Shown here in pieces: positions 1,009 through 39,317 of a stretch of 40,994 nucleotides of DNA. This DNA is from a virus (taxonomy: Duplodnaviria > Heunggongvirae > Uroviricota > Caudoviricetes). Both the position numbers and the translations under genes were made by a program. The stretch spans positions 1-40,994 of IMG/VR virus record IMGVR_UViG_2617270943_000004; one strand, written 5' to 3'. Position 1 is the first letter of the stretch. Every line of letters starts with the position of its first letter. A model generated the notes under the pieces. That model did no database searches. It was not told the DNA's origin and saw only the letters and a list, made by a program, of their open reading frames with translations.

Positions 1009-1083
1009 GTCCTCTTAGTTAAATGGATATAACGAGCCCCTCCTAAGGGCTAATTGCAGGTTCGATTCCTGCAGGGGACACCA
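1009..1083 (+). tRNA. argW: tRNA-Arg (anticodon CCU)
   Basis: 75-nt cloverleaf read by hand: acceptor GTCCTCT/AGGGGAC, D stem GTTA/TAAC, anticodon stem AGCCC/GGGCT with loop CTCCTAA (anticodon CCT), T arm GCAGG-TTCGATT-CCTGC, encoded CCA. Confidence 0.85.
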
Positions 1084-23394: not shown

Positions 23395-23832
23395 TTATTT
23401 CAGGCATTGCGTCCTGATGTACTCCTGCAGGTAGTTAACCTGCGCGGTTATCCTGTCGATTCCACTTCGGAGACGGTAATAATTGAGTTCAGCATCTGCT
23501 GTAAGTCTTGGGCTTTCTCCATCGCCCATGCTGCTGGCTCCGGTCGTTGACTTTGCACAGGTGGCGGCGACTTGCAGGCGCTTACGACCAGCAGAAACAT
23601 CAGCACGGAGACTTTCGATAGTCGCGTTAGCATCAGCAAGCTCCTTTGTATATCTGGCATCGAGTTCTGCTACGTCACGTTGACGCTTCTGCATGTCAGC
23701 GATGATGGATGTGGCTTTGTCGCGCTGTTCTTTGTAGGTCATGGCGTTATCACGGTAATGATTAACAGCCCATGACAGGCAGACGATGATGCAGATAACC
23801 AGAGCGGAGATAATCGCAGTTACTCTGCTCAT
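23395..23832 (-). CDS. Rz-like i-spanin
   Basis: 145 aa from ATG 23832 (ATGA overlap with the endolysin stop); N-terminal TM segment then a charged coiled-coil-like periplasmic domain. Confidence 0.75.
23448..23633 (-). CDS. Rz1-like o-spanin lipoprotein, embedded in the +1 frame of Rz
   Basis: 61 aa; AAGGAG 8 nt upstream of ATG 23633; signal peptide ending in lipobox VSAC; proline-rich mature region. Confidence 0.6.
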
Positions 23833-24332
23833 TGCTGCCCCCACAAACAGACTTCACGCTCAATCTCACGGCGAGTCATCAGCCCTTTCCATTGCTTACC
23901 GCCAGCGTATGTCCAGCGACGTAGCTGGTCACATGCGCCCTTGATATCGCCCTGGTTGATTTTGCGAAGAAGCGTCGATGTTCTGAAATTGCCTGCGCCC
24001 ACGTTATAGACGAACGAATAAAGAGCGCCGCGCGTTGTTTCCGGTATATCGACTTTGATGTACGGGTTAATTTGTCTGGCGACCGTGGCAAGGTCTTTAT
24101 TCAGGAGGGCTTTGCATTCTGCTTCGGTATACGTTTTACCGAGCATGATGTCTTTTCCGGTGTGTCCGTGGCATACAGTCCATACACCAACAATATCTTT
24201 GTATGGTATGTAGCTGACACCTTCCAGGCCATCGTTACCACTTGGTCCAGTGATTAACACAGATGCTATAGCAATAGCCCCGCCACTTATCGCCGCTATT
24301 ACGCTATTTCGTAGTGCCGGTGACATTGCCAT
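23829..24332 (-). CDS. Endolysin (lysozyme) with SAR-type N-terminal signal-anchor-release domain
   Basis: 167 aa; weakly hydrophobic Gly/Ala-rich N-terminus ([19 protein letters not shown]) followed by a lysozyme-like domain; recalled close match to the phage 21 R endolysin. Confidence 0.8.
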
Positions 24333-24507
24333 TCAATCTGTCCTCGCGCTCTTTGCGCTTGTAGTACCAGTTGATGCCAAATGTGCCGACAGTACAAAGA
24401 ATACCAATGATGACAGCCCAGTCATTCAGGGAGAGAATGCCACCCATCGCAGTCAGTCCTCCGAAGCTGTAACTGAACCATTCTCTGATTTTGTCCATAC
24501 GGTACAT
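24304..24507 (-). CDS. Holin, pinholin-like with dual-start motif
   Basis: 67 aa; two TM-like segments; starts MYRMDK with Met1 and Met4, like the holin/antiholin dual start of phage 21 S; overlaps the endolysin start. Confidence 0.6.
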
Positions 24508-24752
24508 GCTCTACCCCTTCATTGAGGGGATTTGCTCTATTTAATTAGGAATAAGGTCGATTACTGATAGAACAAATCCAGGCTACTGTGTTTAGTAATC
24601 AGATTTGTTCGTGACCGATATGCACGGGCAAAACGGCAGGAGGTTGTTAGCGCAACCTCATGCCACCCGCTTTCACGAAGGTCATGTGTAGAAGGCCGCA
24701 GCGTAACTATCACTGATGAATTCAGGATAGCCAGTGGCTACGGCTCAGTTAT

Positions 24753-24828
24753 GGTGCTGGTTAACGGACTTGAACCGCTACCCATTCGCTTACAAGGCGA
24801 CTGCTCTACCATTGGAGCTAAACCAGCA
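24753..24828 (-). tRNA. Phage-encoded tRNA-Thr (anticodon UGU)
   Basis: 76-nt cloverleaf on the minus strand: acceptor GCTGGTT/AACCAGC, D stem GCTC/GAGC, anticodon loop CTTGTAA, T loop GG-TTCAAGT-CC, encoded CCA. Confidence 0.6.
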
Positions 24829-24833
24829 TATTT

Positions 24834-24908
24834 GGCGGGACAGCGTGGACTCGAACCACGATAAGAAGGTTAACAGCCTTCCGTAATGACCTTTATACGA
24901 CTGACCCA
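24834..24908 (-). tRNA. Phage-encoded tRNA-Asn-like (anticodon GUU)
   Basis: 75 nt on the minus strand: anticodon stem GAAGG/CCTTC with loop CTGTTAA, T arm CGTGG-TTCGAGT-CCACG, encoded CCA; acceptor stem has one U-U mismatch and the D stem is weak. Confidence 0.5.
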
Positions 24909-24969
24909 AATAAAAAAGCCACCGCTGCAACTTAAGAGTCACTAACGGCAGCTTACCCTCTAATTATGG

Positions 24970-25488
24970 CTAAATGGCTAATTGCATGTCAAGGTTTTTA
25001 ACAGCAACATGCTTAACTTTCTCAACACGTTTACGCATTTTGAAAGCATTTTGCATTGGTTGGTACAAAACAAATAATGACGCTTTCAGGATGTCGTCAA
25101 TTTCGTTTCTACAGGTTGCCAGTGAAGGTTTTCTCCATCCCTCGCCACCACGTCCACACATCTTGCGTGGCTTTGCAGTCGCGTGATAGTAGGATGCAAT
25201 TGCTCGCTTAGATGAACCATGAGCGTAGTAGCTGAGGAGGATGCCAAAGGCTTTTTTGTCAATGTACATGACGGAATCGACGACCTGAGAAATCAACATT
25301 CCATCATCATCATTGCACATTGGCCTTGTCATAACTCTTCCCGGCTCTACGCTCTCCATGAACTTCGCTATTACGCTGCTCATGCGCTTTTCCAGACGAC
25401 CTGAATAAACCCATGCGCCCCACAGTTCAAGCCAGCCATTCAGCCACTCGTGCTGCTCTTTGGTGAGGTTTAGTTCTCTTATGCCCAT
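24970..25488 (-). CDS. Late-gene antiterminator Q-like protein
   Basis: 172 aa; AAGGGAGAAGG RBS; lies between ninG and the tRNA/lysis genes where Q sits in lambdoid phages; family assignment by position and size only. Confidence 0.5.
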   Translation of the reverse strand: MGIRELNLTKEQHEWLNGWLELWGAWVYSGRLEKRMSSVIAKFMESVEPGRVMTRPMCNDDDGMLISQVVDSVMYIDKKAFGILLSYYAHGSSKRAIASYYHATAKPRKMCGRGGEGWRKPSLATCRNEIDDILKASLFVLYQPMQNAFKMRKRVEKVKHVAVKNLDMQLAI

Positions 25489-39296: not shown

Positions 39297-39317
39297 CTGC
39301 AGGGGACACCATTTATC
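39297..39317. repeat. attR core (21-bp direct repeat of attL)
   Basis: CTGCAGGGGACACCATTTATC identical to 1069-1089; inverted CCCCTGC at 39284-39290 just upstream. Confidence 0.75.

Follow-up and report, generated by a model that had tools for sequence, protein, structure and literature searches.

A Phage 21-Type tRNA-Asn and tRNA-Thr Module in the Late Leader of a P22-Like Prophage: Probable Replacements for Nuclease-Targeted Host tRNAs

Introduction

The closest described system to the locus analysed here is the tRNA module of phage 21, which is also carried by Sf6, SfI, HK446, BTP1, mEp506, and Bas106. It has the same gene order, tRNA-Asn before tRNA-Thr, the same 5-nt spacer, and the same place between the late terminator tR′ and the lysis genes. 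A more distant counterpart lies in the Stx (933W-type) phages, which carry ileZ-argN-argO tRNA genes between Q and stx. These occupy the same slot, downstream of PR′/tR′ and upstream of the lysis genes, and share the idea of a late-expressed tRNA, but they have Ile2 and Arg identities, and no Asn gene is known to lead the array. For the phage 21 type, the SfI paper (2013) found the pair with tRNAscan-SE and gave Sf6, ST64T, PS3, and phage 21 as carriers, and the phage L paper also states that Sf6 carries it. In an RNA-seq paper on a BTP1 lysogen, the two tRNA genes were set apart when the genes with TPM > 100 were listed, and the start of the late operon was placed right after them.

A function has been published for the tRNA-Thr of this module. 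According to a 2025 paper, the P2 Old nuclease kills by cutting the host tRNA-ThrU in the anticodon stem, where a paired CNG motif (positions 28–30 and 40–42) is cleaved after its C, and phage tRNA-Thr(UGU) species, including the "tRNA-Thr21" of phage 21, restore ACA decoding. Against P2 Old, the tRNA-Thr of phage 21 is protective, and C28U/G42A together with a shorter anticodon stem make it resistant to cleavage in vitro. Extra host thrU fails to rescue from Old, in contrast to the phage version. In a 2026 preprint, strong rescue of HK97, HK542, and Bas34 from Old was obtained with the HK446 tRNA-Thr(UGU). The same phage encodes Oad2, a protein inhibitor of Old, and the authors are doubtful that HK446 relies mainly on the tRNA against Old. 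Other host tRNAs are affected as well. Gly(UCC) is another reported Old target, and host tRNA-Asn, when tested as an Old substrate, was cut more slowly than ThrU. The AriB nuclease of the PARIS system targets Lys(UUU), its main target, as well as Thr(UGU) and Asn(GUU), cutting between positions 40 and 41 next to U36-A-A-U39; a U39A change abolishes AriB cleavage in the Lys tRNA. Nuclease-resistant tRNA-Thr(UGU) species acting against P2 Old or PARIS are also known from T4, T5, and Bas32/33, where a tRNA with the same anticodon replaces the cleaved host tRNA-ThrU. Those tRNAs belong to large arrays of virulent phages and have their own promoters, in contrast to the two Q-dependent tRNAs, without a tRNA-Lys, of the temperate phage described below.

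Here, I analysed a virus sequence of 40,994 nucleotides (IMG/VR record IMGVR_UViG_2617270943_000004; Caudoviricetes), hereafter the window, in which an earlier note made from the sequence alone had proposed two phage tRNA genes. The analysis indicates that they are probably two functional phage tRNA genes in a Q-dependent late-leader module, with the tRNA-Thr and putatively the tRNA-Asn replacing host tRNAs targeted by nucleases.

Results

Prophage Context and tRNA Gene Calls

A 21-nt direct repeat, CTGCAGGGGACACCATTTATC, occurs at positions 1069–1089 and 39297–39317 of the window and includes the 3′ end of a tRNA-Arg gene. As att sites, the two copies bound a complete prophage about 38 kb long. 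The tRNA-Arg(CCU) gene, which is of the argW type (1009–1083, plus strand), is intact and is regenerated by the att repeat. The adjoining integrase gene (1209–2402) is convergent with the tailspike gene. Pfam searches of the prophage identified the P22 tailspike head-binding domain, P22 coat, gp3, large terminase, Rha, Rz, lysozyme, an HP1-family holin, and a Q antiterminator. The element is a P22-like (Sf6-like) podovirus prophage at argW, with leftward transcription in window coordinates.

ARAGORN found three tRNAs in the window: the tRNA-Arg(CCU) and, both on the minus strand, a 75-nt tRNA-Asn(GUU) at 24833–24907 and a 76-nt tRNA-Thr(UGU) at 24752–24827. As read from the sequence, they are separated by a 5-nt spacer, AAUAU (24828–24832, minus strand). 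In a cmscan search with Rfam RF00005, tRNA-Thr scored 61.5 bits (E = 4e-11) and tRNA-Asn 55.3 bits (E = 2e-09) against a gathering score of 29. These scores are far beyond chance, and identical copies of both genes in RefSeq are annotated by PGAP as tRNA-Thr and tRNA-Asn. Thus, the two genes proposed in the earlier note, on the minus strand, 5 nt apart, and with the CCA encoded, were recovered by ARAGORN, one of the predictors named there, and scored above the Rfam threshold. Only its span of 24753–24908 was one base off, the ARAGORN ends being 24752 and 24907.

The minimum-energy folds of both tRNAs (ViennaRNA) are cloverleaves. The CCA is encoded in both genes, following G73 in tRNA-Asn and A73 in tRNA-Thr. 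The anticodon stems are GAAGG/CCUUC in tRNA-Asn and GUCGC/GCGAA in tRNA-Thr, and the 7-nt anticodon loops, CUGUUAA (GUU) and CUUGUAA (UGU), have U33 and a purine at position 37. G18G19 is present in both D loops, and the T loops, UUCGAGU and UUCAAGU, fit the UUCRA pattern. The cmscan alignment and a cloverleaf parse revealed two mismatches in tRNA-Asn, U4·U69 in the acceptor stem and U13·U22 in the D stem; these are the acceptor mismatch and the weak D stem that had been pointed out before. tRNA-Thr has one mismatch, G27·A43, at the uppermost position of its anticodon stem. Unusual single bases are C9 in tRNA-Asn and, in tRNA-Thr, C at position 14, the first base of the D loop (window position 24814), where A14 is usual. 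In relatives, this position varies to G or U, and the tRNA is functional according to the literature.

The acceptor stem of tRNA-Thr begins with G1-C72/C2-G71. The identity elements of E. coli AsnRS are G34, U35, U36, and G73, while those of ThrRS are G1-C72, C2-G71, G35, and U36. All of them were found in the respective tRNAs in a sequence parse. Because these elements are present, both tRNAs are predicted to be charged correctly. A suppressor tRNA was considered and rejected; the anticodons are ordinary GUU and UGU in normal 7-nt loops, neither complementary to a stop codon nor expanded.

Late Leader and Expression

The gene of a phage 21-type late antiterminator Q lies upstream at 24970–25488 on the minus strand (Pfam PF06530 Phage_antitermQ, E = 1e-25). 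At the homologous locus in Sf6, gene 59 is annotated as "similar to phage 21 Q". The late promoter PR′ (TTGACA-18-CATAAT; 24963–24992, minus strand; 11 of 12 matches in a promoter scan) overlaps the end of Q. In alignment, it corresponds to an Sf6 promoter whose annotation reads "nearly identical to phage 21 late promoter". PR′ is followed by the intrinsic terminator tR′ (24908–24954, minus strand), which consists of a hairpin (24916–24954) and the U-tract UUUUUUAUUU (24908–24917). The hairpin folds at −20.2 kcal/mol (z = −3.4), a stability that none of 200 shuffled sequences equalled, and in both Sf6 and phage 21 the homologous feature carries a terminator annotation. The tRNA-Asn gene starts at the very next base after the U-tract.

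Downstream of the pair, a lambda-type late-operon leader (24508–24751, minus strand), which is near-identical to those of lambda, HK446, and Sf6 and contains an sdi-like hairpin (24514–24529), leads to the lysis cassette (23395–24507, minus strand; PF16080, PF00959, and PF03245). The cassette encodes an HP1-family holin (24304–24507), a lysozyme-family endolysin with a SAR-like N-terminus (23829–24332), and Rz/Rz1 (23395–23844), all identified from ORFs and Pfam. The positions agree with the earlier note, which placed the tRNA genes in the late leader, after Q and ahead of the lysis genes, and co-oriented with late transcription. The leader of about 245 nt is almost identical to that of lambda up to the hairpin before the start codon, which is CCCCTCAATGAAGGGG in the window and CCCCTTATTGGGGG in lambda. 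Since an unrelated HP1-family holin follows this lambda-type leader, a mosaic joint lies essentially at the ATG (holin start 24507).

This anatomy suggests how the tRNAs would be made. RNA polymerase starting at PR′ would halt at tR′ unless modified by Q. Because the tRNA-Asn gene directly abuts the U-tract and no other promoter fits, synthesis of the tRNAs would depend on Q-mediated read-through of tR′. They would come almost exclusively from transcripts antiterminated by Q and be the earliest products of the late operon. A separate tRNA promoter was rejected; there is no room for one between the U-tract and tRNA-Asn, and the promoter scan gave only PR′. From what is known of tRNA processing in E. 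coli in general, the host RNase P and 3′ exonucleases would release the tRNAs, and CCA addition would be unneeded because the CCA is encoded.

A Known Module with Discrete Boundaries

The tRNA-Asn and tRNA-Thr of the window are each 100% identical to the copies in phage 21, HK446, and BTP1, and the sole difference between the pairs is one spacer base (U vs. C). The Sf6 record annotates the promoter, the qut site, the terminator, tRNA-Asn, and tRNA-Thr, each as "similar to phage 21", and its Q, PR′, and tR′ are of the phage 21 type, as in the window. By itself, the 156-nt pair matches 61 phage records, including 36 of Salmonella, 14 of Escherichia, 3 of Klebsiella, and 2 of Shigella. It is also present in 369 of 5426 complete E. 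coli genomes (about 7%), where PGAP annotates both genes. The pair is therefore an already known and widely annotated phage 21/Sf6-type late-leader tRNA module, and the earlier remark that lambdoid prophages sometimes carry tRNAs at this position is right; this exact pair is annotated in phage 21, Sf6, SfI, and BTP1. As a gene call, nothing is added here, since the GenBank records of phage 21 and Sf6 have contained the pair for two decades. The window differs from the phage 21 module in its surroundings: its holin is of the HP1 family and not S21 or lambda S, and its backbone is that of a P22-like podovirus at argW.

HK446 delimits the module. This phage has Q, PR′, the 6S leader, and tR′ of the lambda type and is colinear with lambda except between the U-tract TTTTTTAT and AACTGAGCCGTAGCC. 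Between these two points, lambda has about 157 nt of unrelated sequence, while HK446, Sf6, and the window have tRNA-Asn, 5 nt, and tRNA-Thr. Downstream of the pair, about 245 nt of lambda-type leader are common up to the holin start codon, despite the different holin of the window. Because HK446 and lambda are colinear outside the insert and the leader is conserved downstream, the pair is read from these alignments as a discrete cassette between conserved flanks. The cassette is found behind Q units of both the phage 21 type and the lambda type, and in podovirus, siphovirus, and myovirus backbones. The HK446 record (JQ086372, locus L002) has no tRNA annotation, but ARAGORN finds at 1214–1369 a tRNA-Asn and a tRNA-Thr identical to those of the window; the 2026 preprint describes HK446 as encoding a single tRNA.

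Variable tRNA Arrays in the Same Slot

In Enterobacterales hosts, including Escherichia, E. albertii, Serratia, Enterobacter, Citrobacter, Shimwellia, Lelliottia, and Atlantibacter, the slot holds tRNA arrays of variable composition. The arrangements are Asn + Thr, which is the commonest, Asn alone, Asn + Arg(UCU), Asn + Gly(UCC), Asn + Gly + Thr, Asn + Gly + Thr + Arg, and Asn + Gly + CAU. The tRNA-Asn gene is nearly always the first in the array and is its most constant member. One locus (L142) has a CAU/Arg-UCU/Gly/Thr array related to the set of the Stx phages. In Klebsiella phages (L106-L108-type), a related tRNA-Thr gene is paired with tRNA-Phe instead of tRNA-Asn, and a metagenomic siphovirus (OL617042) has Asn + Phe + Thr; the composition of the array varies with the host genus.

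Phage L and ST64T have, in the same place, a tRNA-Asn identical to that of the window. In phage L (L383, 381–452), ST64T, ST160, and PS3, the second tRNA has Thr-like acceptor, D, and T arms, while its anticodon arm has been replaced. The phage L version, called as Leu(UAA), is 72 nt long with C at position 33 and would fit the rules of neither ThrRS nor LeuRS.

An IMG/VR locus (L090) has a chimeric tRNA-Thr whose 5′ half is of the phage type and whose 3′ half, from position 27 on, is that of the host thrU. Three nucleotides beyond the chimera lies a tRNA-Gly(UCC) that differs from the host glyT by one base, without tyrU between them. This looks like host tRNA-operon sequence captured by recombination inside the tRNA-Thr gene. 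The Gly(UCC) genes of the slot (L028, L072, L010, and others) are close derivatives of glyT, the main change being A38G in the anticodon arm, joined in some by G39U in that arm, along with a few changes in acceptor bases.

Conservation and Covariation

The comparison used 143 IMG/VR loci, each retrieved with the 3′ terminus of one of the two tRNAs. The dominant alleles are those of the window, accounting for 103 of 139 copies of tRNA-Asn and 80 of 133 copies of tRNA-Thr. Across 115 distinct haplotypes, tRNA-Asn diverges from the window by 1.0–1.2% and tRNA-Thr by 1.6%, as against 2.4% for the downstream leader, 2.8% for the terminator, and 12.5% for the spacer, the most variable segment. Damaged copies are rare; for example, one locus (L126) has a GAU anticodon, and two (L026 and L059) have 1-nt deletions. 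Judging from these comparisons, both tRNAs are under purifying selection and neither is decaying.

Wider scans revealed a second tRNA-Asn lineage (type 2) of about 100 copies. A wide scan of genome contigs with GGTTCGANNCCNNNCTGTCCCGCCA also drew Asp, Arg, Phe, and Trp tRNAs and non-tRNA matches from distant phyla, and only the Enterobacterales tRNA-Asn sequences were kept. In type 2 as well, the gene lies only a few bases downstream of a GC hairpin and U-tract, although these hairpins differ from that of the window type. Types 1 and 2 differ at eight stem pairs, each with both bases altered; no pair has a change in a single base. All seven acceptor pairs are the same, including U4·U69, whereas the other three arms have diverged; the scan pattern fixed the 3′ acceptor strand including U69, so that only the U4 side is free evidence there. 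The Thr-anchored set of 139 copies is unbiased for the 4·69 pair, which is altered in 5 of them, two of these having a G·U wobble. A third, distant tRNA-Asn has U4·G69. Because U4·U69 persists in type 2 despite divergence in each of the other three arms, it is best read as a conserved feature and not as decay, while the 13·22 mismatch is specific to the lineage. The tRNA-Thr variants have compensated changes at pairs 3-70, 4-69, 5-68, and 51-63. Thus, upkeep of the cloverleaf by compensatory substitution is seen in relatives of both tRNAs. The covariation was counted with a structure-aware parse, since a MAFFT alignment misplaced gaps of the D and variable loops and put the T stem and the 13-22 pair out of register. 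Type 2 tRNA-Asn (L151 and about 100 other IMG/VR loci) has A8, where U8 is near-universal.

The earlier note had left three fates for the tRNA-Asn: functional, suppressor-like, or decaying. The functional one is favored; the suppressor-like variant is excluded, and decay found no support. A tRNA pseudogene was likewise rejected, as the scores lie above the threshold, the stem changes are compensated, and divergence is not elevated.

The tRNA-Thr: Old Evasion and ACA Supply

The tRNA-Thr of the window is identical to tRNA-Thr21 and to the HK446 tRNA-Thr(UGU). The published functional data come from other laboratories, one source being a preprint, and were obtained with plasmid-expressed sequences identical to that of the window. 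Positions 28–30 and 40–42 are UCG and CGA, as against CUG and CAG in the host thrU, giving U28-A42 and C29-G41 pairs below G27·A43. Thus, the published sequence features of Old resistance, namely the UGU anticodon, C28U/G42A, and the shortened anticodon stem, are all present. Two other tRNA-Thr lineages (2 and 3) in the same slot keep the CNG pair. The T5 tRNA-Thr resembles that of the window in having a C31-G39 pair (UAAG, not UAAU) and in having lost the CNG motif.

Codon usage was compared as the earlier note had proposed, with long ORFs as phage genes and a 50-kb K-12 sample as the host reference. ACA occurs at 20.5 per 1000 codons in the late genes (35% of Thr codons) and at 5.4 per 1000 (10%) in the host sample, an approximately 4-fold enrichment (Fisher p = 1e-22). 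It is also higher than in the late genes of the tRNA-less P22 (13.1 per 1000, 22% of Thr codons; p = 3e-4). The SfI authors reported the same ACA bias.

The tRNA-Thr would supply ACA decoding to late genes that are about four times as rich in ACA as the host sample, while the host has a single thrU gene. When Old fires, an anticodon stem without the paired CNG would escape cleavage and translation would continue. Both codon supply and nuclease evasion are supported for this tRNA, and mechanistically they amount to one and the same, namely keeping ACA decodable late in infection. The anti-defence role of the sequence is already published. HepS (Gifsy-1) was considered as another driver. It was set aside because it recognizes the anticodon itself, and escape from it would not be obvious for a phage tRNA-Thr(UGU) whose loop is unchanged.

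The tRNA-Asn as a Candidate Replacement tRNA

The AAC/AAT check that had been proposed along with the ACA one gave a different outcome. Asn codons occur at 53.0 per 1000 in the late genes of the window and at 53.4 in those of the tRNA-less P22, and the AAC fraction is below that of the host. Asn demand is not elevated, and it does not explain the Asn tRNA. Likewise, the SfI authors found no Asn codon bias and called the significance of the Asn tRNA unclear.

Comparison with the host tRNAs, which had also been suggested, revealed that thrU and asnT both carry the paired CNG and UAAU, while the tRNA-Thr and tRNA-Asn of the window carry neither. At the AriB site, the host sequences are UAAU-C|A and UAAU-C|C, and those of the window are UAAG-C|G in tRNA-Thr and UAAC-C|U in tRNA-Asn; both thus have the substitution at position 39. 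The type 2 tRNA-Asn also lacks UAAU and the paired CNG, and the T5 tRNA-Asn and tRNA-Thr, like the window pair, lack U39. Nevertheless, a base other than U39 and the absence of CNG are common among tRNAs generally, which makes the loss of the motifs in tRNA-Asn weak evidence. In one report on PrrC170, phage and host Asn tRNAs gave no rescue.

On these sequence grounds, the tRNA-Asn would most likely be a replacement for the host tRNA-Asn(GUU), as the tRNA-Thr is for ThrU; it would stand in for a host tRNA that is reportedly cut by AriB and, more slowly than ThrU, by Old. No resistant tRNA-Lys(UUU) was found in the window, where the only other tRNA is argW, and Lys(UUU) was not seen in the slot survey, in which the single Lys call (L305) had the anticodon CUU. 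Because the prophage does not encode the main target tRNA-Lys(UUU), the pair alone should not defeat the characterized PARIS system.

Discussion

The favored reading, which I consider probable, is that the window has two functional phage tRNA genes in a Q-dependent late-leader module, of which the tRNA-Thr and putatively the tRNA-Asn replace nuclease-targeted host tRNAs. Its most serious competitor is pure codon supplementation, in which the genes are kept only for ACA and Asn decoding demand and nuclease resistance is incidental. The ACA share of Thr codons, 35% against 10% in the host sample and 22% in the tRNA-less P22, agrees well with this idea, as do the other tRNAs of the slot (Gly-UCC, Arg-UCU, CAU, and Leu-UAA), which also read A-ending, host-rare codons, and a 3-fold enrichment of GGA. 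It fails at the tRNA-Asn. E. coli has four asn genes, and with no extra Asn demand the most constant member of the arrays would be left unexplained; the demand equals that of P22, the AAC fraction is under that of the host, and SfI showed no Asn bias either. Furthermore, the inability of host thrU to rescue from Old, when the phage version can, means that sequence divergence matters. Supplementation as the whole explanation is thus unlikely, although it deserves a hearing.

Two other ideas concern the tRNA-Asn alone, and I consider both improbable. It might mainly be an RNA-processing element, from which RNase P detaches the terminator/qut leader, or a modulator of termination, with decoding being secondary. 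Such a role would suit its almost invariable first position, its invariant 5′ acceptor strand GGGUCAG, and the fact that genes of both lineages start 0–10 nt after a GC hairpin and U-tract though the hairpins differ. However, lambda and P22 express their late genes without a tRNA there, and a processing signal would not need a conserved anticodon loop and identity elements. Marginally less probable still is a decaying or non-functional passenger kept by linkage to tRNA-Thr. The two U·U mismatches (4-69 and 13-22), C9, the lower Rfam score (55 bits), and the oversight of this gene in the HK446 study could be taken in that sense. Against it, most sampled copies are identical (103 of 139), the identical sequence occurs in phages of different families, and the diversity of tRNA-Asn is no higher than that of tRNA-Thr, with the anticodon loop, T loop, G18G19, and G73 intact. 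In the second lineage, all eight changed stem pairs are compensated and U4·U69 is kept, U4 having been free in the search. Moreover, the tRNA-Asn stands alone or leads arrays with varied partners, which does not look like a passenger of tRNA-Thr. A suppressor or recoding tRNA, or compensation for a host tRNA gene disrupted by integration, can practically be dismissed. The latter was suggested in passing by the HK446 preprint, but the anticodons are standard, argW (tRNA-Arg CCU) is intact, and neither phage tRNA reads Arg codons. With argW regenerated by the att repeat and reading other codons, compensation for the integration site was rejected in its own right.

A more far-reaching proposal than replacement of host tRNAs can be made only tentatively, and I would sooner expect it to fall short than to hold in full. 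The tRNA-Asn may serve not codon supply but counter-defence, as a dedicated, nuclease-resistant substitute for the host tRNA-Asn cut by Toprim tRNases of the PARIS/Old family. Asn + Thr and the variants with Gly-UCC, Arg-UCU, and CAU may then act as one modular anti-tRNase cassette, timed by Q and exchanged among lambdoid phages through recombination at two places, the tR′ U-tract and the lambda-type leader. U4·U69 might then be a selected determinant, for example, for nuclease evasion or host discrimination.

The pair illustrates why a temperate phage would retain a tRNA or two: its tRNA-Thr answers P2 Old and matches the ACA bias of the late genes. If the tRNA-Asn is truly a resistant substitute, small prophage tRNA cassettes could be read as markers of the tRNA-cleaving defences that a phage lineage has faced.
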